From Magnetococcales bacterium (GTDB taxonomy: Bacteria > Pseudomonadota > Magnetococcia > Magnetococcales > UBA8363), in contig JADGCV010000007.1 in NCBI GenBank assembly GCA_015228815.1, forward strand, positions 1,583 to 65,582: a stretch of DNA of 64,000 nt, given 5' to 3'. This document shows positions 11,557-50,844 of the stretch, piece after piece. The notes under the pieces were generated by a model. The model was not told the origin of the DNA, ran no database searches, and saw nothing but the letters and a program-made list of their open reading frames with translations. The stretch's first letter is position 1; each line of letters begins with the position of its first letter. The position numbers were made by a program, and so were the translations under genes.

Positions 11557-11847
11557 ATGAACACTCCATCAAAGACTCGTCGCACCGTCTGGTTGCCGGT
11601 GTGTGCCGCCTTGCTGGCCGCAACCTGGGCCATTCCTCGGAACGTACACGCCGACGCCGTTACCGCTACCGTTCTCGGAGGGGCTGCCCTTTTGGGGAAC
11701 ATCCTGCATTCATCGAGCCACCATCACGGCTATTACGCCCCGCCCCTGGCCCATCCGGTCGCCCCCGTGTACGCGGCTCCGGTGGTCCGGCCAATGGCGG
11801 TTCCCGTCTATCCGGTGGCGCCCTATTATGTCTACTATCCCTACTGA
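11557..11847 (+). CDS. Small secreted Pro/Val/Tyr-rich protein, paralogue of the 10135 gene
   Basis: Signal peptide, then DAVTATVLGGAALL (compare DAATATVLGGVALL in the 10135 gene). The leader ACAAAGAGAAG is similar before both ATGs. The tail is HHHGYYAPPLAHPVAPVYAAPVVRPMAVPVYPVAPYYVYYPY. Confidence 0.65.
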   Translation: MNTPSKTRRTVWLPVCAALLAATWAIPRNVHADAVTATVLGGAALLGNILHSSSHHHGYYAPPLAHPVAPVYAAPVVRPMAVPVYPVAPYYVYYPY

Positions 11848-13441: not shown

Positions 13442-15150
13442 GGATGTTCCCCGCGAAGACGGGTCAGACGGATGGAGGCGGGTTCGGTCAGGAGTCCGTT
13501 CAGGGAGGGACGCCCCGGTTTCAATCGGGAAAGGGCATAATGATACCCCTCATCCAGCGCAACCCAGCCATCCCGGGCGTTTCCCCGGCTGCCATCCGCT
13601 TCGCCCAGCAATCCCTTGATCAGTTCGTAGGTGAAGGCCCCCTGTCGTCCGTGGTCGTTGGCGCCGGGATCCCCATTGAGCGCGGCGACGGCCCAGCCTC
13701 GGGTATCGGCGAAGAATGCGCGGTCCGGCATTTTTTTCTGCCCCAGGAGCCGGGTGCCGCAGGTCCCCTGGCCATGAAAACAGGTATCCAGAATCACCAC
13801 GATTTCCCGGTCGGGCAGATCGCTCAGGAGGTTTTTGATCCGGCGCAGGGAAATCGCCGTTTGCGGGTTGATCGCCAACCCTTCGACCTGGGACGGGAGG
13901 AGCAGGCCATCGTCGAAGCGCGGCGGCTGACTTGCGACCCATGATGCCCCCAATCCCGAAAAATAAAAAAGCAACAGGGCGTTGGGATGGCTTTTACCTT
14001 TGTGCGCCAGCCAGTCCAGGTCGGCCTGGATTGTTTCCAGGGTCGCATCCTCGCCGATGCGCAGGCGGGCATGCTCCGGATCGGGGAAAAAGACTCCGCG
14101 TCGGGTCAGCAGGGTATGCATGTTGGTGGCATCCCGGTCGCCGAAATGGCGCGATTCGATATTCTGGTAACGACCGACGCCAACGAAGAGGGCAAAGGCA
14201 TCCTCGCGTTTGAGCCAGGGATCGAGGGCCGGTTGCGCGGCGATCAGCGAATCCAGTTCCCGGGTTCGGTCGCCAATGTTGCCGCTTTTGGGCCAGGCGC
14301 CGTCCGGGAGTTCCATCGGTGGTGGTATGGCTCCCTTGGGATCGATTTCGGCGACCAGCAGTTGTTCCTTGGCCTTGATGAACAGCAATTCTTCGGGATA
14401 TTCCTTGATCAGAAAATCGACCGCGTTCTTGATGGCGGACAGGTGCTTGCCGGAGCGAAATTCCTGCCATAGATTTTCCACCAGTGCCAGAGCGGCCTGA
14501 TGTTGCCATTCCTTGGGCAGGCTTCCCGGAAGGTGTTCCCGGGAGAGCCAGTCGTAGGCTTCCAGATAACGGGCCATGCGTGACAGCGCCATGTATTTGG
14601 TGTGGGCCAGGGCCATGTTGCCCGGGTACTTTTTGACTCCTTCGAAGGAAAGAAGATGGGCTTCTTCGTCATTGCCCATTTCGAAACGCAGCCAGGCCAG
14701 ATTGGCATGGACCTTCATCGCCAGACGGTCGGTGGGGGGGCGATCCCGTGTCGTCTTGTAAAGATTTTCCCATAGTTCCCGTGCCTTGGGCAGTTGTTTG
14801 TCAAGATACCACGCCAATCCGAGATTGAAATCGAGTTCGGGATCGGTGGGACAGAGATCATGGGCACGGCGGATCGCCGTCAGGGCGAGTTGCCGCTGCG
14901 TGTCGAAACGACCGATCCCTTTCAAGGCGATTTCCCGGGCGACGTTGCAGGAACCCGACAGTTCGGCCCCCCCCAATGAAGGATGGCTCAATGCCGTCAT
15001 GAAACAAACAGCGAAAAAGGCCGTCCTGCGTGTGTACCGGGAGCGACCGAGGGCGCTTCGGTGGGGGACGTTCGCATCCGTGGCAACGGGTTCGGCGGCG
15101 ATGGTTGACATGCGGTCCAGGGCATTCGTTGGCTGTTGGAACGGAATCAA
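13438..15150 (-). CDS. TPR-repeat protein with a C-terminal caspase-fold (peptidase C14/orthocaspase-like) domain; the canonical catalytic His position is Leu
   Basis: N-terminal RRTAFFAVCFMTALS resembles a Tat or Sec signal. A TPR-like region spans aa 70-260. C14 layout: FALFVGVGRYQN...ATNMHTLL...LLLFYFSGLGAS (expected SGHG)...VVILDTCFHGQG (Cys retained). Confidence 0.75.
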   Translation of the reverse strand: MIPFQQPTNALDRMSTIAAEPVATDANVPHRSALGRSRYTRRTAFFAVCFMTALSHPSLGGAELSGSCNVAREIALKGIGRFDTQRQLALTAIRRAHDLCPTDPELDFNLGLAWYLDKQLPKARELWENLYKTTRDRPPTDRLAMKVHANLAWLRFEMGNDEEAHLLSFEGVKKYPGNMALAHTKYMALSRMARYLEAYDWLSREHLPGSLPKEWQHQAALALVENLWQEFRSGKHLSAIKNAVDFLIKEYPEELLFIKAKEQLLVAEIDPKGAIPPPMELPDGAWPKSGNIGDRTRELDSLIAAQPALDPWLKREDAFALFVGVGRYQNIESRHFGDRDATNMHTLLTRRGVFFPDPEHARLRIGEDATLETIQADLDWLAHKGKSHPNALLLFYFSGLGASWVASQPPRFDDGLLLPSQVEGLAINPQTAISLRRIKNLLSDLPDREIVVILDTCFHGQGTCGTRLLGQKKMPDRAFFADTRGWAVAALNGDPGANDHGRQGAFTYELIKGLLGEADGSRGNARDGWVALDEGYHYALSRLKPGRPSLNGLLTEPASIRLTRLRGEHP

Positions 15151-21154: not shown

Positions 21155-22102
21155 TCAACTGAAAATATCCTCTATTTTGTCAGCATCGGGAATTTTCCTG
21201 CACCACCTTTTCAACGTCTCCAGATCCGCCCCGGTCAACCTGGAATAGACAAAATCCGGAACCGGTGCAAAACGTTCTTGCAGCAAATCAAGAAATATTT
21301 CCTTTCTTTCCAATAGCTTACCTCGTTCCTCGCCAATTTGAATTCCTTTCTTTTGTCCTTCCAGCTTGCCAGCCTCCCAGGTGGATTCCACCATACTGGC
21401 CTGGAAATGCAAATCATCCTGATAGCGTTCGTAGGCCAGGCGTTCCGCTTCCGGAAGGTTCAGAACATCCAGCAATTCCTTGGCCTTGGACAAACCACGC
21501 GCGGTAAAGTTTTCTCGAATATCACCGGTCTTGAGAAAGTAGATCCACTCATCCAACGTATTACGCGCCACCTCGTCGAAACGGTTGACCTTGATCAGAT
21601 AGAACTCGGGAAAAATCTCATGAACGCTTTGCCGGTGAAACAGATCTTTTTGCCCTTCGTTGAGTTGCAGTTCATCATGCGTATGCAGACCCATGAATGA
21701 TGTAGTGCCATGATAGATATAGTCATCACCCTGACCAAGATCAAAATACAAAATACTGATGGAAATCAGCTTCGGAACCTTGGAATAAGGATCTCCGGCG
21801 TTCACATGTTCCGTGATGCTCCTGGCCGCACCAAAAATAAGACGCTGAAGATAATCGTATTCCCGTTCGTATTGCAGTTCAATCAAGATCAACTCCCCCC
21901 GGTTGTCCTTGACCTTCATATCCACGCGGTTGTACTTATCGAGTGGGTCCTCCTTGTTGCTTTCGCTCTCCAGGATCTCGACGATCCGGACATCCGTCCT
22001 GAGCAATTCACTCAGGAATCCTTCCAGAATATCAAAATTGGCCTTGCTGCGTAACAATCGCTTCAAAGCCCAGTCAAAGCTGATCAGACGGCGCCGTTTC
22101 AT
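21155..22102 (-). CDS. Rpn-family recombination-promoting nuclease/putative transposase (PD-(D/E)XK)
   Basis: Start at MKRRRLISFDWALKRLLRSKANFDILEGFLSELL. Nuclease core ...RVDMKVKDNRGELILIELQYE.... The C-terminus is repeat-like. The gene looks visibly AT-richer than its neighbours. Confidence 0.7.
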   Translation of the reverse strand: MKRRRLISFDWALKRLLRSKANFDILEGFLSELLRTDVRIVEILESESNKEDPLDKYNRVDMKVKDNRGELILIELQYEREYDYLQRLIFGAARSITEHVNAGDPYSKVPKLISISILYFDLGQGDDYIYHGTTSFMGLHTHDELQLNEGQKDLFHRQSVHEIFPEFYLIKVNRFDEVARNTLDEWIYFLKTGDIRENFTARGLSKAKELLDVLNLPEAERLAYERYQDDLHFQASMVESTWEAGKLEGQKKGIQIGEERGKLLERKEIFLDLLQERFAPVPDFVYSRLTGADLETLKRWCRKIPDADKIEDIFS

Positions 22103-24834: not shown

Positions 24835-26217
24835 TTACCCCTTCACCGATTCGTTCTGGGTGATGAAGGTATGGTAGGGAAGATCGAGGATATGGCGAAA
24901 GGTGATGATGACCGCGACCATGAAGGTCAAGAGACAGGCGCCGAAATATCCAAATCCATAATAGGAAAATCCTTGATTCATGGAGATGGTTGTCAATACG
25001 GTATTGGAGATCAGGAACAGGAAGCTGACCTGCAACGCCTTGCGACGGCAGTCGAAGTAGGAAAGAAGAATGTTCAGAAATAGAATGGAAACGTGATAAA
25101 ATGCCCCCAACACTCCCAGGCGATACATTCCCATCTGTTTAAAGTTGATGTTGAACCATTCGAACATGTTTGGCGCGAGGAGGATGGCCAAAAGGCTGAC
25201 CCCACCCTGAAGAATCAAAAAATTGCGTCCGCTCACATGAACCGCCTGAATCAGCTCCCGATGATTTTTGCAAATAGTGGCGAAATCGACATGTTGTTGA
25301 ATATCGCGGTAGAATTTAAGATAGTGTTCGTAGAATCGGGTCTCCATGCTCAAAACGAAGGAGGCCATGGAGGGGACGATGGACAGATAGGCCAGAAACA
25401 TGGCGCTGTCATAATTGGGATAGGAATGGAATCCCCCCGCCACCGTTTCCCGCTCGGGGGAAAACCACATGATCCATTTATCGGCCCATGCGGCCAGATT
25501 AAACGTCAATCCGACCAGCGCCAGATCCCAATAACGCCTGAAATATCCCAGAAAACCGAAAAAATCCTTCGCCTCATAGGGATATTCGGCAAAAACCCGG
25601 GCAATGATGCCGAAGAAGATGATCGCCAGGCCGGCATTGAAACCGAAAAACATGCCCACCACCCCAAGATCCCTGGCCAGAAACGGGTTGGCCACTGCCC
25701 CCAGCATCATTCCCAGGAAAAAGACCCGGATGACCATCTTGTAATCTTTCAAGGCGGTCACAAAAATGGTCACCAGCCAAATGCCGTTGATCAGAAAATA
25801 GTTGATGAAGGCGCTGACGGCGGTCATGAACTCCAGTTCGACATGGAAAAAATAAAAATAAAACGCCAGGGGAAACTGAACCGCATAGATCAGCATCAAC
25901 CCTCCCAGAAGGGTACCGGGGGCCTTCCACACCTCCTTGAGGAAAATAAGATCCGAGACATAACGGGTGACTACCATGATGATGGGACCGGAAATCACCA
26001 GGGAAAAGGAAAAATTATAGATGACGGCGATACGAAAGGAAATCTGCTGTTCAAAAGTGGTAAAGTAGGAACCCAGGGAAAGTATTCCGGTCAAGGCGAG
26101 AATCGTGAACAACCAGGGACCGGTAGCCACCAGCGCCGAATAGCCGAATCCGCTCAGAAGGCCGATCAGGTTGTCCCTGGTCGTCAGATTGCGCAAGACA
26201 AAACCGATACCCGCCAT
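24835..26217 (-). CDS. pelG: Pel exopolysaccharide export protein PelG (polytopic PST/MATE-like membrane protein)
   Basis: MAGIGFVLRNLTTRDNLIGLLSGFGYSALVATGPWLFTI..., about 12 hydrophobic helices. It lies immediately downstream of pelF (4-nt gap). Confidence 0.8.
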   Translation of the reverse strand: MAGIGFVLRNLTTRDNLIGLLSGFGYSALVATGPWLFTILALTGILSLGSYFTTFEQQISFRIAVIYNFSFSLVISGPIIMVVTRYVSDLIFLKEVWKAPGTLLGGLMLIYAVQFPLAFYFYFFHVELEFMTAVSAFINYFLINGIWLVTIFVTALKDYKMVIRVFFLGMMLGAVANPFLARDLGVVGMFFGFNAGLAIIFFGIIARVFAEYPYEAKDFFGFLGYFRRYWDLALVGLTFNLAAWADKWIMWFSPERETVAGGFHSYPNYDSAMFLAYLSIVPSMASFVLSMETRFYEHYLKFYRDIQQHVDFATICKNHRELIQAVHVSGRNFLILQGGVSLLAILLAPNMFEWFNINFKQMGMYRLGVLGAFYHVSILFLNILLSYFDCRRKALQVSFLFLISNTVLTTISMNQGFSYYGFGYFGACLLTFMVAVIITFRHILDLPYHTFITQNESVKG

Positions 26218-41703: not shown

Positions 41704-42543
41704 TCAGACGATCTCTTTGTAAAACAGTCCAGCCACTTTCGAATAAGCCGCGGGAGTAAGGTGAATTTCATTCAACCAATCCGTGCGGTTTGGCATCATC
41801 TCACGGATATCGAGCACCCTGACACGATCCGAGCGTAGCTTGATGAGTTCGTCAGCAAAAGCGTCGATCATCCATTTTATGATCGCATATTGGTCTTTCT
41901 TATATTTGATTCCTTTTTCCTCCATATAGGGCTTGATCCACGACTTTGTTTTGAACAAACCACCCAGGAAGGCTCCACCAATATTGCTCGGAAGGGGATA
42001 GCAATAGGTGTGCGTGATGAGGATACATCTACTGTTGCAATCCATAACATGATCGATCAGTCTCTTGTAAGCCTGGATAATTTTTTCAAGAGTTTTATTG
42101 AATTCCTCTTGATTGATCCACCCCAGGGGATTTCCTGGCGTGGTATTCTGATCATGAAGGAATCGATCCATATCGCCCTCGCCGACGATATCATTCCCAC
42201 CGCCGGAGAAGAGAAAGAAATCAAGCTGTTCATAGTATTTCTCCAGTAGTCGTTTAATTTCACGGAAGCTGGAGCCAGAAAGCATCTTGACCGCTTCATC
42301 TCCAGGACTGGATAGTTGCAGCAAATTAAAATAGGACATCGACGACAGACAATCGACGACATTTGATGGTTGCCCAAAAAACACGGCCCTTCTCGGATAG
42401 GAGAACCAAGAGTCCCCCTCTGCGATGATTGTTTTACAGTGTGACCGGTATTCCAACAAGCAATCAAATTCTCCCTCTGAAACTGTAAAACGATTGGTTG
42501 CAACCAAATGAGTCCGGTTGACTGGATCGATTTCGCATGTCAT
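41704..42543 (-). CDS. SGNH/GDSL-type hydrolase (lipase/esterase fold)
   Basis: Block I IIAEGDSWFSYP, block III FLFSGGGNDIVG, block V-like DWLNEIHLT. Clearly AT-richer than dnaE, which lies 19 nt away in convergent orientation. Confidence 0.65.
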   Translation of the reverse strand: MTCEIDPVNRTHLVATNRFTVSEGEFDCLLEYRSHCKTIIAEGDSWFSYPRRAVFFGQPSNVVDCLSSMSYFNLLQLSSPGDEAVKMLSGSSFREIKRLLEKYYEQLDFFLFSGGGNDIVGEGDMDRFLHDQNTTPGNPLGWINQEEFNKTLEKIIQAYKRLIDHVMDCNSRCILITHTYCYPLPSNIGGAFLGGLFKTKSWIKPYMEEKGIKYKKDQYAIIKWMIDAFADELIKLRSDRVRVLDIREMMPNRTDWLNEIHLTPAAYSKVAGLFYKEIV

Positions 42544-42612
42544 GGTACCCTCCTCTGAATGTCAATTGTATATTACTTAACTGAAAACCATGGAACAACT
42601 ACAACTCAAAAC

Positions 42613-43008
42613 TCACACCCCCCCAGAATTCACGGAACTTTTTGTTTTTGCCTTTTTGGTCCTGGGTTTGCGCCAGCGCAGGGTCACCTTCAACTGCGCT
42701 TCGGCACCCCCTTCGGAGATGAAGGCAACCCCCACCTTGCCATGAAGTTTCAGGCCAAAGGAGACCCGGCACTCCGAGGGATCGCTGGCGCGAAAACGAT
42801 CCACCACCCGTTGCACCACCGGTTGCACCGTCTCCAAGGCTTCCATCACGGTGGTGGAAACCTTGTTGCTGAGGGTCTTTTCTCCCCGAAAGACTGGCCC
42901 GCTTTCTCCCTGCCCGGAAGGGTCATCCAGCAACACCACCTCATCGTCCGCGACTTCCGCGAAAAAAGTTGAGTTTTCATCCAGCTTTATCTCTACGATT
43001 CTGCCCAT
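42613..43008 (-). CDS. Trypco2-like (trypsin-co-occurring domain 2/CU044_2847-type) small protein
   Basis: Start at MGRIVEIKLDENSTFFAEV...GESGPVFRG...MEALETVQPVVQRVVDRF...CRVSFGLKLHGKVGVAFISEGGAEAQLKVTLRWRKP. The C-terminal EFGLKL...A...FKVTLxW pattern matches this family as I remember it. The longer track ORF start at 43227 is unsupported. Confidence 0.55.
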   Translation of the reverse strand: MGRIVEIKLDENSTFFAEVADDEVVLLDDPSGQGESGPVFRGEKTLSNKVSTTVMEALETVQPVVQRVVDRFRASDPSECRVSFGLKLHGKVGVAFISEGGAEAQLKVTLRWRKPRTKKAKTKSSVNSGGV

Positions 43009-43153
43009 CAACAGTCCCTTTCGACAAACCAGCATCTGAAAAACGATCATCATCCGCAAAATGAGGCGTTCTGTCCAGGGTTGTTTCCAAATCGAGGCAG
43101 AGATATGATTCGCATGAAAATGGGAAGGTTTCATCGTACTGGGAGGGGTTCGG

Positions 43154-45097
43154 ATGCCGGTTTCATCAACGTTGCTTTTGGCCGTTACCATGCGCATAAC
43201 GGATGGCCAACCCGTCATCACCTTCAATTCCGGGGATCGCTCCCCCTGGTCCAGGAGACCAGAAGAACCACCGCCGGATCACCGCCGCACGGAACCCCTG
43301 TGGCAATCATTGAGGGGCGACTGGACGAATCGGCGCAACATTCTGCTTCGGGTGGGCAAGGAACTGGCCGACTGGCTGCTGGATGAGGAGGCCCGCAAGA
43401 TCCTGCTTGAGGGGCAACACCCGAATGAGGATGCCCCCCGATGGCGCATCGAATGGTATTTGGACGAAAAATTTTCCCAATGGCCCTGGGAAATCGTGGC
43501 CCTGGACGGTCCGGGTCACCTGGGGGTCCATCCATCCTTCACCTGCGTTCGCAGTCACGAAGGCGAACCTGAGCATCCCCCACTTCCCACGTCGCTGGTG
43601 GTACAACTCCAAGGGGTGCAACTGAAGAAGGAACGGGCCGGATCATGGGCCGTTCTCGATACCGGCAAGGAGTTGGATCGGATTTATAACCAGATCAAAA
43701 ACTCCAGACACGACGGTCGCTTTCGGGTGGAGATGGATGCCCTGGGTCAATGGGGAACCGTATGTAACAAAATGGAAAGAGATGGCCCACCCCATATTTT
43801 TCATTTTGCCGGTCATGGTGTTGAACAGGGTGATGGACTGCTTTTCCTGGACGACCGGGACGGTCCCGACCCCATCGAAACCACCCGCATTGCACAACTT
43901 CTGGCCAACCCCCGCCGTGGCCGTCGTCTCCATCTGGTTTTTCTCAACGCCTGCCGCAGCGCCGGAACCGGCACCCCGACATTGCAACCTTTTGGCGGTC
44001 TCACCCGGCAGTTGCTCAACAAGGGCATTCCCATGGTCGTGGGATTGCTCGCTCCGGTGGAAGACAACGAAGCCGCCGCCCTGGCCACCGAGTTCTACGG
44101 TGCCATAGGAGAAGGCGATTCCGTGGATGTTGCCCTGCAAAAGGCCCGTGAACAGGTTTACATGACCGGCAGTCAGGCAGGATGGGCCTTTTTGACCCTC
44201 TCCCTCCTGGGCCCCCCCCTGCCCCTGATGGCCACACCCCCTCGATCAACCTCCACGCCGGGGGCCACGATTCTGGACTTTGGCTTCGATCAACAGGCCA
44301 AGGCGCTGAAATATTTTCTATTATTGGAGAAACCCCTCGTCATCGTAGTGCGTGGCCAAGAGGGGACGGGACATGAGCATTTCCTGAAGCAGGTTCCCCA
44401 TCTGCTCGAAAGCAAGCGGACATTGTGGAAACCTCTGGTCGGTTTTGAATTTCGCATGGCAGGAGATGCGTCACTCCACCGCCACGAACTTGCAGGTACA
44501 CTGGCCCAGGCCCTGGAAATAGCCGATGACGGCGAACAGAATGTTCTGGAGGCGCGTCTGGCCCGAGGAATTGCCGAACGCTGTGAAACCGGCAAGGTAT
44601 TGGTGTTCCAAATCAATGCAACCATCCTCCTGGAACAGGACCGCCAAGCTGAAGCGCTTCTGGTTCTGGTGCAACACCTATGGATCGCCATCATGACGCA
44701 GGCCATGCGGTTACGTACCCGTCTCCCGGTTTATCTGATCGTGCCCATCGCCACTCCCAAACAGGAAGTGCCGATTTTTGACTGGAAAAAATTGTTGACG
44801 TGGCGCAAGAAGAATGAGCAATTGCGCCTTCATTTCCAGGCCAGTGAAAAACGAATGAACAATCTTATCCAGCGACTCAATACACAGACCTCCCCCGAAC
44901 ATGACGTTCGGGTAGAAATTCTGCCCGCCCTGGAACCTTTTACGCACGACGAGGTGGCGCAATTTCTGGACAAGGCCTTGGCCATGGCCGGGAGCGAACA
45001 CGATGAAGCCCTGGAAAATATCATGGGCATCAACCATGACAACACACGCATTCTTTCCCTTCTGAAGCAAAAAATCGACAACAGGAACGCACGATGA
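43154..45097 (+). CDS. CHAT-domain (caspase-fold) protease with a C-terminal degenerate P-loop-like module
   Basis: GGGAGGGG Shine-Dalgarno upstream. CHAT dyad context PHIFHFAGHG (His221, 43814-43816) and LHLVFLNACRSAG (Cys267, 43952-43954). The C-terminal region has PLVIVVRGQEGTGHEHF, a Walker-A-like motif with His in the Lys position. Confidence 0.8.
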   Translation: MPVSSTLLLAVTMRITDGQPVITFNSGDRSPWSRRPEEPPPDHRRTEPLWQSLRGDWTNRRNILLRVGKELADWLLDEEARKILLEGQHPNEDAPRWRIEWYLDEKFSQWPWEIVALDGPGHLGVHPSFTCVRSHEGEPEHPPLPTSLVVQLQGVQLKKERAGSWAVLDTGKELDRIYNQIKNSRHDGRFRVEMDALGQWGTVCNKMERDGPPHIFHFAGHGVEQGDGLLFLDDRDGPDPIETTRIAQLLANPRRGRRLHLVFLNACRSAGTGTPTLQPFGGLTRQLLNKGIPMVVGLLAPVEDNEAAALATEFYGAIGEGDSVDVALQKAREQVYMTGSQAGWAFLTLSLLGPPLPLMATPPRSTSTPGATILDFGFDQQAKALKYFLLLEKPLVIVVRGQEGTGHEHFLKQVPHLLESKRTLWKPLVGFEFRMAGDASLHRHELAGTLAQALEIADDGEQNVLEARLARGIAERCETGKVLVFQINATILLEQDRQAEALLVLVQHLWIAIMTQAMRLRTRLPVYLIVPIATPKQEVPIFDWKKLLTWRKKNEQLRLHFQASEKRMNNLIQRLNTQTSPEHDVRVEILPALEPFTHDEVAQFLDKALAMAGSEHDEALENIMGINHDNTRILSLLKQKIDNRNAR

Positions 45098-46017
45098 CCT
45101 CCGCGAAACTGCCTCCATTCGACATCTACCGGGGCGACGGCACTCCGCGACCGGAACTGGCGAAACAGATGCCCGAAAGTGGCTTTCTGTTTGCCGAACA
45201 GGGGGCCTACCTGGCCGATGCCGACCTGGTGGAGGCGGTCAACGTCTCCCTGGCGGTGGGACAACCCCTATTGTTGACCGGGGAACCCGGTTGCGGCAAA
45301 ACCCGCCTGGCCGACAGTCTGGCCCTGGAGTTGGGACTTGGGGAGCCGTTGATCTTCCAGACCCGTTCCACCTCCCAGGCCCAGGAGCTGCTTTACACCT
45401 TCGATGCCGTGGGCCGGTTCCACCACATTCAGGTTGGAGACAAACGGGCGGCGGATCCGGTGAACTATGTCCGTTACGGCCCCCTGGGCCAGGCCATTGT
45501 CGAAGGGCGGCGGCGGGTGGTCCTCATCGATGAAATCGACAAGGCCCCCAGGGATTTTCCCAACGATTTGCTCAGCGAGTTGGACCGCATGGTGTTCACG
45601 GTCCATGAACTGGAGGAGCCTACGTGCCGCAAGGCCGGTTCCCACCGTCCTGTGGTGGTGATCACCAGCAACAGCGAACGCCAGTTGCCCCTGGCCTTTC
45701 TCAGGCGCTGCGTCTTTCATCACATTCGTTTTCCCAGCCGGGAACGGCTCGTGGCCATCATTGGCGAACGTTTGCGCGACATGAACCTGGATGGCGGGTT
45801 GGTGGAGGCGGCCGTGGACCGTTTTCAGGAGGTGCGTGGACTCTCCGGCCTGGTGAAAAAACCGGCCACCGGCGAACTTCTGGCCTGGCTCACCGCCCTC
45901 GCCATCCAGGGCAAAACGGTCGATCATGTACGCAGCCCCGCCCTTGCCCGTCTGCCCCTGTGGCAGGCGCTGCTGAAGGATCGCGATGATTTCCGCCGCC
46001 TCCAGGAAGCCGTTTGA
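45094..46017 (+). CDS. MoxR-like AAA+ ATPase
   Basis: Walker A LLLTGEPGCGKTRLA (45280-45303), Walker B VVLIDEIDKA, sensor region VVITSNS, FLRRC. ATGA overlap with the CHAT gene stop. Confidence 0.85.
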   Translation: MTSAKLPPFDIYRGDGTPRPELAKQMPESGFLFAEQGAYLADADLVEAVNVSLAVGQPLLLTGEPGCGKTRLADSLALELGLGEPLIFQTRSTSQAQELLYTFDAVGRFHHIQVGDKRAADPVNYVRYGPLGQAIVEGRRRVVLIDEIDKAPRDFPNDLLSELDRMVFTVHELEEPTCRKAGSHRPVVVITSNSERQLPLAFLRRCVFHHIRFPSRERLVAIIGERLRDMNLDGGLVEAAVDRFQEVRGLSGLVKKPATGELLAWLTALAIQGKTVDHVRSPALARLPLWQALLKDRDDFRRLQEAV

Positions 46018-49000
46018 CGCGCCACTGACCGATCTGCTTCAGGGATTGCGTCATCGTGGACTGGCCATCGGTGTCGATGACGCCCGGCGGGTGGCTCTCG
46101 CCTTCCGCCATTCCGGATCATGGTCGCGGCAGCGGCGGCTGCGAGTACTCAAGAGCCTGTTGGCCAGAAACGACCAGGAGCGCCTGATCATCGATCAACT
46201 GGCGCCGTTCCTGTTCCAGGATGCCCCCCCCGAGGAAACCTTTGTTCCCATCGACCTGCCGAAGGCCCCGGACGCCAAACCCGTCCCGGAACCTAAAACG
46301 CAACCCAGAACGCAACCCAAACCCCACGTCGGTCAACGCAACAAACGACCCCGCCTGGTGCGTTGGTTGGTATTTTTTGCTCTGCTCGCGACGGCCATTG
46401 CCTGGGTAGATTCACAGATCCAACGCCCGGCCCCAGAACCACTGCCTTCCGCCCCGGTTCAACCCGGCCCCAATCAGAAAATGCAGACGAAACTTCCAGA
46501 AGCGCCGACACCCACGGATCTGGAAATGGATACCGACCCTTATCATCCGCCTCGGGAGCCGTTTTTCCTGGGGCTGGCGGTGTCCCTGCTGTTACTGCTT
46601 GCGCCGCTTCCGGGGCTGTTGCGTCGCAAACGGGTTCGACTTCAGAAAAGAAACCTGGAGTCCCTGGAAAAATCCACGGGACACCGCGTTTATCTTCCGG
46701 GAGCGTCCGTTTGTGACCACCTGCGGCCACTTCCCATCGGCCCCTTGCGCGAGGCCGCCTTTCATCTTAACGCCCCCTCGGAACCCATACGCGCGCCCCA
46801 ACTGGACATTCCGAGAAGCATTCTGGCCACGGTGCGCCGGGCGGGCCATCTCACCCTCATCCATGACCAATGGCTGACCCGAAAGCCGGTGTTGTTCATC
46901 GAGGATGTCGCCCCCGGCATGGCCCTTTGGCCCGGATATGGCCGCCAGATTGCCCAGGCCCTGGAGCGGCAGGGCAACCGACTGCTGCACCGATTCATGG
47001 TGGAAGAACCGGGAACGCTCCATGAAGGGGCCAACCTGGAGGGTGGCATGGCCCTGGAACAGGTTCTGGCGAATCTGGGGGGCCCCACGGTGGTCATTCT
47101 TGGCCATGGCGCCTTTTTGGAACATCGACCGGAATACCGACTGGCGAACGCCCCCTGGCTGGGGCTTCTGAACAACGCCGTCTGGCTCCACCCCCAGCCC
47201 CCGGAATTATGGACGGAGGGGATCCGCCTGCTTGCCGGGCGGCTGCGCCTGGTGCCTCTGACCATGGACGGGCTGTCGCGGCTTTCCGGGGTCGCCGCCG
47301 ACAGCATCACCCCCTGGAGGCCACCACCTCCCGCCCTGGATCGTTCCACCCGCCTGGCCAACATGCGCGCCGTGGTCGGGACGGCAGGCTGGCGGTTTTT
47401 GCAGGCAGGGGCGGTGCTGGATCGTGCCGGGGTGCTGACCATGGCCCTATGGCGATCGTTGCCTCTTGAAGGCATTGTTTCGTTGGATGCAACCACCCTG
47501 GAAAAATGCCTGATTCTGGCCGAGCCCGTGCTGGGACCGGGTGGAAAAGTCCGTTTGCCCCCATGGTTTCGAGAAGCCCTTGTCGCGGAGGTGACACGGG
47601 AAGATCCGGCACTCCTGTCCCAGGTGATCCTGTGGGGAGAAAACATTCTTTCTCGCGATCTGCAAACCATCACCGCCAGGGGAACCGCCTGGGTGCAGGC
47701 GCGTCTGGCCCGTATGCGTCTCCTGGTCCTGGATCCGGAACACCGCCCGGAAGCGCGGGAGGCGATGCGCCTTTTTTCCAGGGAAGGATTCGGAGGCTGG
47801 GCCGAAGCGTCCATGGTCGCCGGGGAGCGCGTTCTTTGGCACAAAATTCCTTTGCAACGGGCCAGGCCCCCTGGACGATGGGCCTACGGGTCCGCGTTGA
47901 TCGGTGTGATCGGTATGCTCGTCATGGGAACCGGGTTGGCCAAACCGGATCTGGTGGCCCGCTTGTTTCCCCCGGAGCCTGAATTTCGTTTCCTGACCGA
48001 TACCCCCCCGTGGGCATTACTGACACCGGAAGAACCGTTGCGTTTTTATGATCGCCGGCAACGGAATGGCCCGGTCAGGATTTCCGTGAACGATTGGCCG
48101 GAAACCATCTTGCTCGCGCAACGGGATGTCCAGGGCCGGTGGTACTATGAATTGACTCCCGATGAGCGTCTGTTTTCTGACAATTCACCCTCTTATCTGC
48201 GTCTGGGGTACGGGGACCTTCGTCATGGCCCGTTCGTCTTCTACAGCCTGTCGGGTTTTCCAGTCAAATTGACCGGTATCCGGAATGACAATCAACAAGG
48301 GGTGCAATTTTCCTGGTCCCTGTCGTCCGAAATCACGGATGCCAGCATTCTTTCGTTTCACCTGTACCACTTGGGACGGGAAATTGAAAAACCACCGCCG
48401 AGAACACGGACGTTCCAGACTGCGATCTCCGCGCCAAAAGGGGGTTCCTTCAGGCTTCTCGTCAAAGTTCAAGGTCCGGGAACCGCAACCATGATCTTTC
48501 CCAGCAACCGGTTTGTCATGGATGAATCGCCAGACATGGAATTTGTCCAGATCCCTCCGGGCTGTTTCCAGATGGGTTCACCAAAGACCGATAAAGACCG
48601 GGATGACGATGAAGGTCCGGTGCATAAGGTATGTGTAGACGCTTTCTGGATGGGAAGGTATGAAGTGACGCAAAAGCAGTGGAAAGCCGTGATGGGAACG
48701 AACCCATCCTATTTTGCTTCGTGTGGCGATGAATGTCCCGTGGAGCAGGTTTCCTGGGAAGATGCGCAGGATTTCATTCGCAAGCTCGATAAACAACAGG
48801 ATGGATGTACCTATCGATTGCCGACGGAGGCGGAATGGGAATATGCGTGCCGGTCCGGGGGAAAAAATGAAACCTATTGCGGAGGAAATGATGTAAATCG
48901 GGTGGCCTGGGACAGGACCAACTCTGAAAATACGACTTATAGAGTGGGCGGTAAGGCGCCCAATGGCCTGGGCTTATATGACATGAGCGGAAATGTGTGG

Positions 49001-49210
49001 GAGTGGGTATCGGATTGGTATGACGGAAAGTTCTATGCCAATTCCCCGAGGGACAATCCGAAAGGGCCATCTTCGGGCTCCGCCCGGGTCGGGCGGGGCG
49101 GCGGCTGGGACAGCAACCCAGCCAACGTCCGCTCCGCGTATCGCAACTACGACGGCCCGGGCAGCCGCTACAGCGGCCTGGGCTTCCGCCTTTCGAGGAC
49201 TTGCCCTTAG
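45986..49210 (+). CDS. 1074-aa three-TM protein: N-terminal helical domain, CoxE-like vWA domain with degenerate MIDAS, and extracytoplasmic C-terminal FGE-sulfatase-like domain
   Basis: Overlaps the moxR-like gene by 32 nt. TM helices lie at about aa 124-141, 192-212 and 634-652. LDIPRSILATVRRAGHLTLIHDQW..KPVLFIEDVAPGM follows the CoxE-type vWA pattern, with DVSGSM replaced by DVAPGM. The C-terminus has FVQIPPGCFQMGS, RLPTEAEWEYACR, DMSGNVWEW and RVGRGGGW. Confidence 0.75.
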   Translation: MISAASRKPFDAPLTDLLQGLRHRGLAIGVDDARRVALAFRHSGSWSRQRRLRVLKSLLARNDQERLIIDQLAPFLFQDAPPEETFVPIDLPKAPDAKPVPEPKTQPRTQPKPHVGQRNKRPRLVRWLVFFALLATAIAWVDSQIQRPAPEPLPSAPVQPGPNQKMQTKLPEAPTPTDLEMDTDPYHPPREPFFLGLAVSLLLLLAPLPGLLRRKRVRLQKRNLESLEKSTGHRVYLPGASVCDHLRPLPIGPLREAAFHLNAPSEPIRAPQLDIPRSILATVRRAGHLTLIHDQWLTRKPVLFIEDVAPGMALWPGYGRQIAQALERQGNRLLHRFMVEEPGTLHEGANLEGGMALEQVLANLGGPTVVILGHGAFLEHRPEYRLANAPWLGLLNNAVWLHPQPPELWTEGIRLLAGRLRLVPLTMDGLSRLSGVAADSITPWRPPPPALDRSTRLANMRAVVGTAGWRFLQAGAVLDRAGVLTMALWRSLPLEGIVSLDATTLEKCLILAEPVLGPGGKVRLPPWFREALVAEVTREDPALLSQVILWGENILSRDLQTITARGTAWVQARLARMRLLVLDPEHRPEAREAMRLFSREGFGGWAEASMVAGERVLWHKIPLQRARPPGRWAYGSALIGVIGMLVMGTGLAKPDLVARLFPPEPEFRFLTDTPPWALLTPEEPLRFYDRRQRNGPVRISVNDWPETILLAQRDVQGRWYYELTPDERLFSDNSPSYLRLGYGDLRHGPFVFYSLSGFPVKLTGIRNDNQQGVQFSWSLSSEITDASILSFHLYHLGREIEKPPPRTRTFQTAISAPKGGSFRLLVKVQGPGTATMIFPSNRFVMDESPDMEFVQIPPGCFQMGSPKTDKDRDDDEGPVHKVCVDAFWMGRYEVTQKQWKAVMGTNPSYFASCGDECPVEQVSWEDAQDFIRKLDKQQDGCTYRLPTEAEWEYACRSGGKNETYCGGNDVNRVAWDRTNSENTTYRVGGKAPNGLGLYDMSGNVWEWVSDWYDGKFYANSPRDNPKGPSSGSARVGRGGGWDSNPANVRSAYRNYDGPGSRYSGLGFRLSRTCP

Positions 49211-49258
49211 CCCTTTTACGCTTTTGCCCTTGGTGGTTTTGGGGTTGCTGTTGGTTTT

Positions 49259-49326
49259 GCCCTCTTTCCTTGCGACCAGCAAGCGGGCGTTTCTCAGCCC
49301 GAGGGCTGGTCGCAAGGAAAGAGGGC
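49259..49326. repeat. Perfect 22-bp inverted repeat (GCCCTCTTTCCTTGCGACCAGC ... GCTGGTCGCAAGGAAAGAGGGC) with a 24-nt spacer
   Basis: Read directly from the sequence. The spacer can itself pair (CGGGC/GCCCG). It lies 49 nt after the stop of the 1074-aa gene, in the convergent gap before the moeB-like gene. Confidence 0.85.
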
Positions 49327-49333
49327 GGGGAGT

Positions 49334-49395
49334 CCAGAGGGGCCGTGGCCCCTCTGGTGGGTCCAGGGCGAAGCCCTGGTCGCGACATTTTTTTT
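49334..49395 (+). terminator. Two further GC-rich hairpins (CCAGAGGGG-ccgtgg-CCCCTCTGG; CCAGGGC-gaa-GCCCTGG) followed by T8
   Basis: Stems read from the sequence. The T8 run is at 49388-49395, 8 nt after the last stem, so the geometry is imperfect for an intrinsic terminator. Confidence 0.4.
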
Positions 49396-49513
49396 GACAG
49401 ACTGGTTCGTGATCGGTTGGCCGTTATCTTGCAACAAGTAGTTGATACGCCTGGCTTTTTTGGTTCGGTTACCCAGGATTTTTCTATGTCGGGGGTCGAA
49501 TTGCGAAAGATGG

Positions 49514-50272
49514 TTAATGGCAGCCGCAGGTGCGGCAGGCGCGGTTTTTTGGCACCCGGATGCGCTGGAAGACAAGATCAAGGGTGTTGACGAGCAGCAC
49601 TTCCCCGGCGCATGTCGTGCCGATGCCAAGATACTCCTTGATTGTTTCTACCGCCTGCATGGCCCCGATGATTCCGGCCACCCCTCCCAACACGCCCGCC
49701 GTGGCGCAGGAGGCGTGACAATTTCTGGATGGTTCCGGGTACAGGCAACGATAACAGGGCGCCTGGGCATCGACGCCATGACGAAAAACCGCCACCTGCC
49801 CCTCGAATCCAAGGACTGCCCCGGAGACCAACGGTTTGTGGTGACGCAGGCAGGCCTCGTTCAACGCATAGCGGGTGTCGAAGTTGTCGCTGGCATCCAG
49901 TGCCAGATCGCATCGGGGGAGGATTTCATCAAAAGTTTCGGCGGTTGCGCGTCCGGTGACGACATCGATCTGAACGTCGGGGTTCAACCGTCGCAGGGCC
50001 CGGGCCGCCGTTTCCCCCTTGGGCTGACCGATGTCGGGGGTGCCATAGAGGATCTGCCGCTGGAGATTGGAAAGTTCCACCCGGTCCGAATCGGCGATGA
50101 TCAGACGACCGATCCCCGCGGCGGCAAGATACAATCCCGCCGGAGCGCCCAACCCTCCCGCTCCAAGGAGGAACACCCGGGCGTCAAGCAGACGTTCCTG
50201 TCCCGCGCCACCCCATTGCGTCAGAAGAATGTTGCGCGAATAGCGTTCGATCTGTCGCTCATCCAGAGTCAT
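49514..50272 (-). CDS. HesA/MoeB/ThiF-family adenylyltransferase (E1-like)
   Basis: IERYSRNILL...RVFLLGAGGLGAPAGLYLAAAGIGRLIIADSDRVELSNLQRQ. Cys pairs CYRC and CRTC. Confidence 0.85.
   Translation of the reverse strand: MTLDERQIERYSRNILLTQWGGAGQERLLDARVFLLGAGGLGAPAGLYLAAAGIGRLIIADSDRVELSNLQRQILYGTPDIGQPKGETAARALRRLNPDVQIDVVTGRATAETFDEILPRCDLALDASDNFDTRYALNEACLRHHKPLVSGAVLGFEGQVAVFRHGVDAQAPCYRCLYPEPSRNCHASCATAGVLGGVAGIIGAMQAVETIKEYLGIGTTCAGEVLLVNTLDLVFQRIRVPKNRACRTCGCH

Positions 50273-50768: not shown

Positions 50769-50844
<76 letters not shown>

Follow-up and report, generated by a model that had tools for sequence, protein, structure and literature searches.

An iSTAND-class MoxR-vWA ternary conflict system very probably encoded by an uncultured magnetotactic Magnetococcales bacterium

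Introduction

A block of genes between dnaE and a tRNA-Asn gene of an uncultured magnetotactic Magnetococcales bacterium raises three questions: whether it encodes a conflict system, which of its genes belong to that system, and how the system might work. An initial annotation, made from the sequence of the window (the whole stretch of 64,000 nucleotides that was analysed), had proposed a five-gene system of unrecognised composition, related to the MoxR-vWA "ternary" conflict systems predicted by Kaur, Burroughs, Iyer and Aravind (2020). Here, the genes, their homologues and predicted structures were analysed, and several possible functions were compared.

Results

Organization of the gene cluster

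The block is a real four-gene cluster with intact open reading frames (ORFs). The features of the region are as follows:

41704-42543, minus strand: SGNH hydrolase ORF; adjoins the cluster, excluded from it
42613-43008, minus strand: Trypco1-family small protein, 131 aa, cytoplasmic (Pfam PF19493, NCBIfam)
43009-43153, no strand: divergent intergenic region between the Trypco1 and CHAT-iSTAND genes, 145 bp, candidate promoters in both directions
43154-45097, plus strand: CHAT-iSTAND protein, 647 aa, the "third component" of the ternary system (homologues, AF2/Foldseek)
43349-44173, plus strand: CHAT (caspase-fold) peptidase domain, residues 66-340 (Pfam PF12770, Foldseek)
44276-45094, plus strand: predicted inactive iSTAND NTPase-like module, residues ~375-647 (Pfam matches of homologues, Foldseek)
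45094-46017, plus strand: MoxR-clade AAA+ ATPase, 307 aa (Pfam AAA_5, PDB matches)
45986-49210, plus strand: three-TM protein with vWA-like, vWA-L and FGE domains (vWA-X), 1074 aa
45986-46240, plus strand: N-terminal helical domain of vWA-X, residues 1-85, predicted cytoplasmic (alignment)
46358-46621, plus strand: TM1 (~125-143), Pro-rich acidic loop (144-192, predicted periplasmic) and TM2 (~193-212) (hydropathy)
46886-47293, plus strand: alpha/beta vWA-like domain, predicted cytoplasmic, residues ~301-436 (AF2, sub-threshold Pfam matches in relatives)
47342-47821, plus strand: all-helical, vWA-L-like linker domain, residues ~453-612 (AF2)
47885-47944, plus strand: TM3, residues ~634-653 (hydropathy)
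47945-48538, plus strand: beta-rich spacer, predicted extracytoplasmic, residues 654-851 (alignment)
48539-49192, plus strand: FGE/"FGS" (C-type-lectin-fold) domain, residues 852-1069, predicted periplasmic and non-catalytic (Pfam PF03781)
49256-49397, plus strand: three consecutive hairpins ending in T8 (RNA fold)
49514-50272, minus strand: MoeB-like gene
50769-50844: tRNA-Asn

The SGNH, CHAT, MoxR and vWA ORFs of the initial annotation were all recovered with their coordinates, as were the ATGA shared by the CHAT and MoxR ORFs (45094-45097) and the 32-nt overlap between the MoxR and vWA-X ORFs. The flanks had also been described correctly: dnaE terminates at 41684, which leaves 19 nt to the SGNH stop codon, and the MoeB-like gene and tRNA-Asn lie on the opposite side. 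The intergenic region contains sigma-70-like matches on both strands (43021-43050, plus; 43077-43049, minus), each with just 9/12 consensus positions, which is not evidence of function. The hairpin element 3' of the operon, which includes a 30-nt inverted repeat (49259-49326), has a folding energy of -115.5 kcal/mol (z = -7.5), occurs once in the window, and probably serves to terminate the operon or to insulate it from the convergent moeB-like gene.

The cytoplasmic proteins

The CHAT domain matches Pfam PF12770 (4.5e-20), and the dyad residues His221 (FHFAGHG) and Cys267 (FLNAC) are invariant in an alignment of five homologues. The predicted CHAT protease is thus present with an intact dyad, but its C-terminal iSTAND half had been overlooked. 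Full-length homologues are encoded in seven other loci (31-37% identity). The full-length homologues P0002 (36% identity) and P0005 (34%) match the iSTAND family PF19995 above the cutoff (1.3e-6 and 2.5e-5); the window protein itself does not match PF19995. Its P-loop is degenerate (GQEGTGHEH), in line with a family consensus, G....GH.H, that has neither Lys nor Ser/Thr, and G401, G406, H407 and H409 are invariant in the alignment. A Foldseek search with the AF2 model matched both CHAT proteases and CED-4: the CHAT domain retrieved SAVED-CHAT (8tl0, 1e-9), followed by Csx29, DdvA, separase, CED-3 and caspase-8, and the iSTAND module retrieved CED-4 (2a5y, 5.4e-4, probability 1.0) as well as Orc1/Cdc6. 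Because of the transitive Pfam matches, the family-wide degenerate P-loop and the structural matches to CED-4, the C-terminal ~270 aa are predicted to be an inactive STAND module. A nucleic-acid-binding domain was not detectable in this module, and the protein contains neither a TM segment nor a signal peptide (maximum 19-residue hydropathy 1.45).

The second gene encodes a MoxR-type AAA+ protein, as had been proposed. It matches Pfam AAA_5 (1e-10) and the structures of midasin AAA (5e-12) and NorQ (1e-4), its Walker A (GEPGCGKT, with K69) and Walker B (LIDEID) motifs are intact, it is devoid of TM segments, and the MoxR proteins of four orthologous loci (L001-L004) share 57-65% identity with it.

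The small divergent gene had been assigned to the Trypco2 family; it turned out to encode a Trypco1 protein (PF19493, 9.7e-21; NCBIfam CU044_2847 family, 4.6e-18) without TM segments. The gene begins at the ATG at 43008, which yields 131 aa, and not at the TTG of a 204-aa ORF. Trypco1 accompanies the other three genes in 4/8 loci. In the window it points away from the CHAT gene, while it lies on the same strand and directly upstream in L001, L002 and L082, overlapping the CHAT-iSTAND gene by 4 nt in the latter two.

The membrane protein

The N-terminal ~620 aa of vWA-X are conserved among its homologues, whereas the C-termini vary and consist of FGE, Calx-beta, PEGA/TPR or CarboxypepD_reg domains. 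The best-conserved alignment block, residues 1-85, is presumably equivalent to the 4-helix N-domain that Kaur et al. (2020; PMC7159879) describe for CoxE-type vWA proteins. The proposed CoxE-like vWA domain was retained in part. The AF2 model contains a beta-alpha-beta domain in this region (pLDDT ~80-89), and sub-threshold VWA_CoxE matches occur in the same region of 3/9 close and 9/44 distant relatives. However, the window protein has no VWA Pfam match at E<=1, sequence profiles retrieved no PDB match, and Foldseek gave no significant match, with NorD, MDN1-MIDAS and CMG2 vWA at ranks 25-32. The all-helical linker that follows (helices at 232-391 of the modelled vWA-X sub-sequence) appears to be the counterpart of the vWA-L linker of VMAP and iSTAND systems (PMC8195603).

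At the MIDAS, Asp307 is retained, and both serines and the second conserved Asp are missing: DVAPG stands in place of DxSxS, and "GH" in place of the strand-4 "SD". This makes the window protein the most degenerate of ten family members (DVAPG versus DVSPS, GH versus SD), and one or both serines or the Asp are also missing in P0014-P0019. Domains without the aspartates occur in other ternary classes (Kaur et al., 2020). As a consequence of these losses, canonical metal-dependent peptide binding may be inoperative, or this may be a decaying copy.

TM1 and TM2 have hydropathy peaks of 1.82 and 2.31, with seven K+R before TM1, nine after TM2, and four basic versus seven acidic residues in the loop between them. 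TM3 is weak (1.65), with five K/R and no D/E before it and one versus five after it. The positive-inside rule, applied to hydropathy and charge only, predicts that the N-domain, the vWA-like domain and vWA-L are cytoplasmic and that the FGE domain is outside. The earlier idea of an extracytoplasmic sensor fits this topology, and the same has been proposed independently for related systems by Dore et al., in whose model vWA-CLec is the sensor and the signal passes via MoxR to the peptidase component. The hydrophobic segment at the TM3 position is kept in most homologues and missing in the soluble homologue P0018; therefore, given also the weakness of TM3, an outside location of the FGE domain is not universal for the family. 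The spacer between TM3 and the FGE domain has no Pfam match.

The FGE-like domain was recovered (PF03781, 7.4e-50). Its best PDB match is TvpA, the variable protein of a diversity-generating retroelement (DGR) (2y3c, 1.2e-31), followed by true FGEs (1.8e-26). The two catalytic Cys positions of FGEs align to a Ser and a gap, Cys is lacking between residues 966 and 1072, and the domain is predicted to be non-catalytic and lectin-like. The FGE domain of the Binatia orthologue L002 is a bona fide target of a DGR: the variable region occupies the final ~119 nt of the vWA-FGE gene, the template repeat (TR), bAvd and RT lie downstream, and all mismatches are at template adenines. L082 also carries bAvd. 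A DGR RT, Avd or TR is absent from the window, and L003, L004, L083 and L084 are also devoid of a DGR.

Conservation and composition of the locus

The gene order CHAT-iSTAND, MoxR, vWA-X is kept in 8/8 loci (the window, L001-L004, L082, L083 and L084/85), whose hosts include Binatia, Haliangium, a deltaproteobacterial MAG and a planctomycete-like contig. A MoxR/vWA overlap of 32-38 nt is conserved in L001, L082, L083 and L084, and the genes flanking the trio are unrelated between loci. PIN genes adjoin the trio in L001 and L002, with a weak Pfam match in L083, and integrases do so in L084. The subfamily is rare: at E<=1e-30, 1.84 billion proteins yielded 41 cluster representatives. Close relatives of the window were not found.

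The SGNH hydrolase had been identified correctly as an SGNH enzyme: it matches Pfam GDSL exactly at the cutoff (6.6e-5), GDSW, GGND and EIH blocks are visible, and its homologues are named SGNH/GDSL. It was rejected as a member of the system, since none of the seven other loci contains it and its homologues stand alone in unrelated housekeeping contexts. The postulated five-gene system is thereby reduced to a three-gene core plus Trypco1. Both divergent genes had been described as AT-rich, which is true for this unrelated neighbour (GC 0.45; GC3 0.51 versus a window median of 0.67), but not for Trypco1, which has an ordinary composition (GC 0.57, GC3 0.67). The GC/GC3 profile of the core genes gave no compositional sign of recent acquisition.

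Discussion

In the published definition, the iSTAND ternary system has an extension-free MoxR, a vWA protein of CoxE type with TM segments, a caspase-like peptidase fused to iSTAND and, most often among the C-terminal domains, FGS (Kaur et al., 2020; PMC7159879, Section 20). The locus agrees with it point by point, and it is very likely that Trypco1, CHAT-iSTAND, MoxR and the membrane vWA-like-FGE protein form a system of this class. The relation to the ternary systems had thus been recognised correctly, with caspase fold and FGS both present; the composition, however, had already been described in 2020 nearly feature for feature, and the locus is not a new kind of system. PADLOC, which has no model for the iSTAND system, gave no matches. 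An experimental study of the class was not found in the literature examined, in agreement with the initial annotation. The class is enriched in multicellular taxa, and the Magnetococcales host lies outside these.

The best overall model, to which we assign a probability of about 0.55, is that a periplasmic lectin-like sensor acts via a vWA/MoxR switch on a cytoplasmic apoptosome-like caspase module. In its favour are the agreement with the class definition, the co-conservation of the trio and of Trypco1, the predicted topology, and the models of Dore et al. and the Esr pathway as precedents; for a sensor role of the FGE domain in particular, the DGR in L002, bAvd in L082, the match to TvpA and the missing Cys pair. 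Counted against it are the weakly supported vWA fold, the degenerate MIDAS, the lack of a DGR in the window, a topology predicted from hydropathy and charge with a weak TM3 and a soluble homologue, the absence of a PADLOC model and of experiments on the class, the host outside the enriched taxa, and the preference of the class authors for iSTAND as the sensor.

According to these authors, the cytoplasmic iSTAND senses the invader, probably foreign nucleic acid, MoxR-vWA sets a threshold, CHAT processes vWA or other proteins, and the FGE domain is not the input but an effector that binds and sequesters invader molecules. This possibility is less probable. In its favour, it was put forward for an identical architecture, diversification of the orthologous FGE domain by a DGR fits an antibody-like binder equally well as a receptor, and the FGE domain of soluble P0018 is cytoplasmic. 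However, CHAT-iSTAND, MoxR and Trypco1 have no TM segment and the window FGE domain is predicted to be across the membrane, so that its release by the protease would be topologically awkward. Furthermore, a periplasmic binder tethered to the membrane would not obviously kill or contain anything by itself, and the iSTAND module lacks a detectable nucleic-acid-binding domain.

The best-known role of MoxR-vWA pairs is that of maturation chaperones. A housekeeping role as a chaperone or signalling module in envelope or metabolism instead of an anti-invader role, like that of NorQ/NorD, CoxD/CoxE or RavA/ViaA, with a lectin-like domain that senses a periplasmic self-component and a protease for regulatory processing, would be in line with this, with NorQ among the PDB matches, the CHAT-domain anti-sigma factor DdvA among the structural matches, the lack of PADLOC matches, and core genes of host-like composition amid dnaE, moeB and tRNA-Asn. 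We regard it as improbable, because neither a client enzyme nor a sulfatase is encoded nearby, the catalytic Cys pair is missing, and the rare trio moves as a unit across unrelated contexts in distant lineages. This mobility, the swapped C-terminal domains, the PIN and integrase neighbours and the DGR hypermutation in L002 are hallmarks of conflict systems.

Least probable is a decaying or disabled iSTAND copy with intact ORFs, in which signalling would have been lost because the MIDAS is lost, the DGR, present in the FGE-type orthologues L002 and L082 (bAvd), is gone, and an inversion has separated Trypco1 from the operon. Against this, none of the four ORFs is truncated and their sizes are similar to those of the orthologues, the dyad, Walker motifs and translational-coupling overlaps are preserved, and degenerate MIDAS motifs and DGR-less loci are found elsewhere in the family.

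In the periplasmic sensor model, the TvpA-like FGE domain outside the cytoplasmic membrane would be the ligand-binding input, with a surface component of a phage, an epibiont or a foreign cell as candidate ligand. The signal would reach the cytoplasmic vWA-like domain by way of TM3 and the helical vWA-L, and the MoxR hexamer would use ATP to remodel the vWA/iSTAND complex and serve as threshold switch. The NTPase-dead, CED-4-like iSTAND might then oligomerise or be released and activate the fused CHAT protease by proximity, as in the apoptosome or the SAVED-CHAT filament. A precedent for the model as a whole is the Esr pathway, in which a MoxR-vWA pair is combined with surface beta-propeller sensors, and which has its own experimental support as a threat-sensing pathway. 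The activated CHAT protease would cleave cytoplasmic targets, with Trypco1 as a candidate substrate, inhibitor or cofactor, and the cell would as a result stop growing, die or pass on a downstream signal.

Gene organization and conservation of the locus

The system is compact, comprising four genes within about 6.6 kb. It has a divergent Trypco1 gene and three overlapping genes on the forward strand, and it is neighbored by an SGNH hydrolase gene.

Genes of the locus and its SGNH neighbor (window positions)
41704-42543, minus strand: SGNH hydrolase gene, open reading frame as placed in the initial annotation
42613-43008, minus strand: Trypco1, start ATG at 43008, 131 aa
43154-45097, plus strand: CHAT-iSTAND, 647 aa
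45094-46017, plus strand: MoxR AAA+ ATPase, 307 aa
45986-49210, plus strand: vWA-like/FGE protein, 1074 aa

The positions initially annotated for the SGNH, CHAT, AAA+, and 1074-aa genes were confirmed, and the two reported overlaps, ATGA between the CHAT and MoxR genes and 32 nt between the MoxR and vWA genes, are both real. The block was also correctly placed between core genes, with the end of dnaE at 41684 and a MoeB-type gene and tRNA-Asn on the opposite side. A search for direct or att-like repeats on either side of the block found none. A metagenome scan with the C-terminus of dnaE recovered relatives with identities of 38-47% only, and neither moeB nor genes of the system were near any of them.

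The succession of genes for CHAT-iSTAND, MoxR, and vWA-X is kept in order and strand in eight of eight loci, all with unrelated flanks, namely, the window, L001 (a planctomycete-like contig), L002 (a Binatia MAG), L003 (a Haliangium MAG), L004 (a deltaproteobacterial MAG), L082, L083, and L084/85 (TARA). [quoted passage not shown] The MoxR protein is 57-65% identical to its counterparts in L001-L004, compared to 30-39% for the other two proteins. Full-length relatives of CHAT-iSTAND are few, with 11 matches in an index of 5.8 billion proteins and at least three loci in a GTDB scan; for the vWA core, 41 cluster representatives were retrieved among 1.84 billion proteins (E<=1e-30). PIN genes are neighbors in L001 and L002, with a weak Pfam match in L083. 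On the TARA scaffold L084 (951-3675), three tandem genes for tyrosine recombinases (phage integrases) are located directly 5' of a CHAT-iSTAND/MoxR/vWA-Calx-beta operon, which points to mobility of the module.

The fifth gene that had been proposed as a member encodes a genuine SGNH hydrolase (GDSW, GGND, and EIH blocks; exactly at the GDSL cutoff), but it does not belong to the system. None of L001-L004 and L082-L084 contains the SGNH gene, and for this lack of co-conservation the five-gene composition was rejected. The SGNH family is large, with more than 1600 proteins, some of which are named SGNH/GDSL. Its homologues include three stand-alone genes among housekeeping genes in unrelated contexts, two of them from other Magnetococcales. 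The gene is 19 nt away from the dnaE stop; other Magnetococcales encode its nearest homologues, which are 59% and 44% identical and occupy unrelated positions. Both divergent genes had been described as AT-rich, which is true for the SGNH gene (GC 0.45, GC3 0.51), but not for Trypco1 (GC3 0.67). With a median GC3 of 0.67 in the window (sd 0.05) and values of 0.61-0.75 for the core genes, the SGNH gene is the sole outlier. The core operon does not show a compositional trace of having been acquired recently; among the genes of the block, the SGNH gene alone deviates. Its deviating composition and the unrelated positions of its homologues suggest that it is a separately mobile or relocated gene. 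Elsewhere in the window, two long open reading frames have a low GC content, 21155-22102 (minus strand, 0.47) and 24835-26217 (minus strand, 0.50), compared to the window mean of 0.575. A tandem repeat array at 10351-10782 (54-nt period, alternating offsets of 24 and 30 nt, 11 registers) sits inside overlapping open reading frames without a Pfam match.

The small divergent gene had been assigned to the Trypco2 family. It encodes Trypco1 instead (PF19493, 3.3e-20 and 9.7e-21), the sole Trypco profile that was matched, and Trypco2 (PF19631) was rejected as it gave no profile match. In L001, L002, and L082 the Trypco1 gene is located directly upstream of the CHAT-iSTAND gene on the same strand, in two of the three with a 4-nt overlap, and it is inverted in the window; in L003, L004, L083, and L084 it is absent or undetected. 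Kaur et al. (2020, PMC7159879) associate Trypco1/2 with trypsin-like peptidases and the caspases of VMAP systems with an alpha/beta-hydrolase. The occurrence of Trypco1/2 near trypsin- or caspase-like genes has been described by Dore et al. (2023/2024). Here, Trypco1 accompanies a caspase-type peptidase and is not linked to trypsin alone.

A caspase-like protease fused to an inactive STAND module

The identification of a CHAT protease with a His/Cys dyad was borne out (Pfam 4.5e-20, residues 66-340), and H221 (within FHFAGHG) and C267 (within FLNAC) are invariant in five homologues. The initial annotation had overlooked that residues of about 375-647 of the same protein form an inactive STAND module. 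The Pfam iSTAND profile (PF19995) did not directly match the window protein, which aligns end to end with the homologues P0002 (36% identity) and P0005 (34%), and both of these match PF19995 above threshold. Across the family the P-loop has the form G....GH.H without the lysine, and the window copy reads GQEGTGHEH.

Foldseek searches with an AF2 model of CHAT-iSTAND (pLDDT 67) retrieved SAVED-CHAT (1e-9), followed by Csx29, DdvA, separase, CED-3, and caspase-8, and the same model also matched the STAND ATPase CED-4 (5.4e-4, probability 1.0) and Orc1/Cdc6. The best structural matches to the two halves of the 647-aa protein are thus SAVED-CHAT (8tl0), Csx29 of Craspase (8eey), and the CED-4/CED-3 apoptosome. 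What is common to the CRISPR-associated CHAT proteases and the apoptosome is a caspase-fold protease that is activated by regulated oligomerization, which is also predicted here. Their activators differ, i.e., cyclic oligoadenylate for SAVED, target RNA for Cas7-11, and nucleotide-bound CED-4. In contrast to all of them, the STAND module of the window protein is without a functional P-loop, and the upstream switch consists of a separate MoxR ATPase and its vWA-like partner.

The MoxR ATPase and the vWA-like domain

The second gene of the operon encodes a MoxR-type AAA+ protein, as proposed (Pfam AAA_5 1e-10; PDB matches to the midasin AAA, 5e-12, and to NorQ, 1e-4), and its Walker A motif, GEPGCGK(69)T, and Walker B motif are intact. 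A match to the NCBIfam profile "MadB family AAA-type ATPase" was partial and far below threshold (4e-22, 79 bits versus a cutoff of 475).

The 1074-aa protein had been described as a CoxE-like vWA protein with a C-terminal FGE-like domain. The FGE domain was clearly recovered (Pfam 7.4e-50), but for the vWA domain no Pfam match was obtained in the N-terminal 851 residues (E<=1). Sub-threshold matches to VWA_CoxE were found in relatives, namely, in L001 (1.4e-4), in three of nine close relatives (best 6.6e-6), and in nine of the 44 distant relatives that were recovered with the family profile (best 1.4e-7), always within the region that this profile matches. An AF2 model of residues 222-640 (pLDDT 68) contains a beta-alpha-beta domain at about 301-436 (pLDDT about 80-89), which is followed by an all-helical domain. 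A Foldseek search of the PDB with this model yielded nothing significant, with NorD, MDN1-MIDAS, and CMG2-vWA at ranks 25-32 only, amid generic Rossmann folds, and HMM profiles built from nine and from 40 family sequences did not match any PDB sequence. The vWA domain has been defined as a six-stranded alpha/beta fold with aspartates at the ends of strands 1 and 4, which belong to the MIDAS (Kaur et al., 2020, PMC7159879). Both defining aspartates are retained in the family consensus. In the window protein the first aspartate (D307) is kept, while the second as well as both serines are replaced, though present in the family consensus; with DVAPG for DxSxS and GH for SD it is the most degenerate of ten members. 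The vWA assignment is the weakest element of the identification.

Topology of the membrane protein and the FGE domain

Three hydrophobic segments are present in the 1074-aa protein, at residues of about 125-143, 193-212, and 634-653. Seven lysines and arginines precede the first segment, nine follow the second, and five, without any acidic residue, precede the third, while the loop between the first two segments and the stretch after the third are acidic. From these segments and their flanking charges, the N-terminal domain, the vWA-like domain, and the helical linker are predicted to be cytoplasmic, and a beta-rich spacer and the FGE domain to be outside. CHAT-iSTAND, MoxR, and Trypco1 do not contain a transmembrane segment. 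The homologue P0018, encoded in L083, is without any transmembrane segment and thus represents a soluble variant of the vWA-FGE protein; in the same locus (672-2574) CHAT and iSTAND are two adjacent genes.

The best solved relative of the FGE domain is the variable protein TvpA of a Treponema denticola diversity-generating retroelement (DGR; 2y3c, 1.2e-31), ahead of the true FGEs, all of which have the FGE/C-type-lectin fold in common with the window domain. The catalytic cysteine pair of FGE/SUMF1 is located in the C-terminal sub-domain (Cys336/Cys341 in human numbering). In an alignment with SUMF1, the window domain has a serine and a gap at these two positions, and residues 966-1072 do not contain any cysteine. 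A catalytic formylglycine-generating enzyme was rejected because the pair is absent, and together with the similarity to TvpA this argues for a binding fold rather than an enzyme. A second, stand-alone protein with an FGE/C-type-lectin fold is encoded in the window at 12539-13441 (minus strand, 300 aa, Pfam 6.8e-48). Its gene is translationally coupled to 13438-15150 (minus strand), which encodes a protein of 570 aa with only a weak, sub-threshold match to TPR_2, and its DNA matches the N-terminal part of the FGE domain encoded by the 1074-aa gene with 61% identity. A related Magnetococcales contig (L086) has a gene for a 298-aa FGE-domain protein, with an unannotated gene for 542 aa just before it.

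TvpA is tied to a DGR, whereas a DGR link of the window FGE domain was not found within the window. A blastn comparison of the 3' end of the FGE gene (48400-49260) with the whole window did not reveal a repeat resembling a template repeat (TR), and a tblastn search with the reverse transcriptase (RT) and bAvd of L002, together with a repeat search, detected neither RT nor Avd nor TR. The only similarity to the FGE 3' query, within the paralogous FGE gene at 12.5-13.4 kb, has 61% identity, concerns the N-terminal part of the domain, and was rejected as TR. The situation is different in L002 (JBFWXH010000014.1), where the vWA-FGE gene is the genuine target of a DGR. The element spans 9605-11801 and comprises the variable region (VR, 9605-9723) and the TR (10175-10293), which repeats 119 nt of the 3' end of the gene with 90% identity. 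All mismatches between VR and TR are at template adenines, and the downstream genes encode bAvd (7e-14) and an RT (RVT_1, 5e-23). A bAvd closely related to that of L002 is found in L082. That the FGE domain of this family is hypermutated by a DGR in a Binatia MAG argues that it is a recognition module. An unusually stable triple hairpin is present in the window at 49256-49397, between the convergent vWA-FGE and moeB-like genes (a 30-nt inverted repeat included, T8 at the end; -115.5 kcal/mol, z = -7.5 for the RNA fold), and it occurs only once in the window. A DGR target-site cruciform was considered and rejected, as no such hairpin follows the VR of L002, and the element was taken to be a terminator.

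Relation to described systems

The initial annotation was right to place the locus among the MoxR-vWA ternary systems predicted in 2020, but its composition is not an unrecognized one. It is that of the iSTAND ternary system (MoxR-vWA subsystem 2) of Kaur, Burroughs, Iyer and Aravind (2020, eLife 9:e52696, PMC7159879). That system has a MoxR protein without additional extensions, and the window MoxR of 307 aa is without the N- and C-terminal extensions of VMAP-type MoxR proteins. A third component with an inactive STAND module, a caspase-like peptidase fused N-terminally to it as the signaling domain, and the gene adjacency are also the same in both; in the class, the signaling domain can also be a trypsin-like peptidase, a TIR, or an EAD. 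The vWA component of the class has an N-terminal helical domain, transmembrane segments, a helical linker, and a variable C-terminus after the transmembrane segments, as does the window protein. FGE, termed "FGS," is the domain found here and the commonest C-terminal domain of the vWA component in the class (about 22%; Kaur et al., 2020, PMC7159879), and the helical linker was added as vWA-L by the same authors in 2021 (PMC8195603). It is therefore well supported that the locus belongs to the iSTAND ternary class, the vWA fold being the one defining feature without a clear match. A VMAP ternary system was rejected, as the third component is CHAT-iSTAND and a Pfam scan did not detect any VMAP family. 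The locus is real and well formed and is a member of a described, computationally predicted class, and specialists familiar with the 2020 paper would immediately recognize the system. In comparison with the described class, the peptidase accompanied by Trypco1 is caspase-like and not trypsin-like, the MIDAS is degenerate, and the host is a unicellular magnetotactic bacterium of the Magnetococcales, an order of Pseudomonadota, whereas the class is enriched in multicellular taxa. These differences, together with the missing DGR, are minor variant features.

A search of PADLOC-DB v2 did not reveal a matching system model; among weak, sub-threshold domain matches, the best was SAVED_CHAT (6.5e-4, 16.7 bits), IetA and mad8 matched only at the P-loop, and the vWA-FGE, Trypco1, and SGNH proteins did not match at all. 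The initial annotation knew of no experimental characterization of a system with this composition, and a literature search found none for an iSTAND-type system, the class being a computational prediction and the term "iSTAND" being confined to papers of the Aravind laboratory. To our knowledge, no iSTAND-type system has been tested so far.

Related systems have been described from two other directions. For the MoxR-vWA-CLec systems ([quoted passage not shown]; Dore et al., 2023/2024) a flow from the vWA-CLec sensor via MoxR to a peptidase has been proposed. As in the window, the CLec/FGE fold is C-terminal, MoxR is encoded directly upstream, and a peptidase gene and Trypco1 are nearby, and the orthologue in L002 is likewise a DGR target. 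In contrast to these systems, the window does not contain an RT, Avd, or TR, and the third component is iSTAND and not VMAP. The Esr pathway of oral Actinobacteria has given experimental support to outside-in threat sensing by a MoxR-vWA pair and a surface beta-propeller (Wang et al., 2026, preprint, PMC13622651). Here too a MoxR-vWA pair is coupled to a domain for sensing at the cell surface. However, Esr senses with a beta-propeller on a filamentous protein and responds through a kinase/phosphatase that acts on an FHA protein to drive Esx transcription, and it does not contain a caspase-like peptidase, iSTAND, or FGE domain.

Direction of signaling and biological meaning

An outside-in model with the FGE domain as the sensor is favored, because this domain has a noncatalytic recognition fold like that of TvpA and is subject to hypermutation in an orthologue, because it is predicted to be across the membrane from the cytoplasmic protease, which would therefore be unable to release it, and because a CED-4-like scaffold, to which the protease is fused, would suit activation by proximity. 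How ligand binding would lead to protease firing, what the protease would cleave, and what Trypco1 would do are all inferred. With a rough probability of 0.3, the locus may encode a receptor-coupled transmembrane "bacterial apoptosome," in which an external threat would act via a MoxR/vWA-like switch and a CED-4-like scaffold on a caspase-like protease, with Trypco1 as a dedicated partner. The lectin-like domain outside the cytoplasm would recognize a threat such as a phage particle, an epibiont, or the surface of a foreign cell, and the signal would cross the membrane via an ATP-gated MoxR/vWA-like switch that may no longer need the MIDAS metal site. The nucleotide-independent, CED-4-like scaffold would then oligomerize and fire the fused caspase-like protease, and Trypco1 would partner caspase- as well as trypsin-type peptidases, as a substrate, an inhibitor, or an adaptor.

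The original model of a sensor inside the cell is doubtful, yet it has the prediction of the class authors on its side that iSTAND is the sensor of the invader (PMC8195603); this direction is opposite to that of Dore et al., and the recognition fold predicted outside the membrane speaks for the outside-in direction. A non-defense signaling or chaperone role is unlikely. It would be in line with the housekeeping pairs NorQ/NorD, CoxD/CoxE, RavA/ViaA, and CbbQ/CbbO, in which a MoxR-clade AAA+ protein is also found beside a CoxE-type vWA partner, NorQ being a PDB match of the window MoxR and NorD a weak structural match of the vWA-like domain. Unlike these pairs, the locus does not have a client enzyme. 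Its MoxR-vWA pair is instead fused or linked to a lectin-like domain, a caspase-like peptidase, and an inactive STAND module, and the module as a whole is mobile with variable C-termini. A disabled remnant, for which the degenerate MIDAS might be taken as a sign, is very improbable, the caspase dyad and the ATPase being intact.

In the predicted topology of the outside-in model, the input is on the outer side of the membrane and the protease on the inner side, and the direction of the signal is thus testable. The window copy also illustrates that a vWA-like domain can lose MIDAS residues while the remaining system is intact. MoxR-vWA ternary systems form a large, computationally predicted class that may serve in bacterial immunity or programmed cell death and that resembles the apoptosomes of animals in concept. 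If the outside-in reading is true, a caspase-like protease would be activated from the outside in a unicellular bacterium, before an invader enters the cell.
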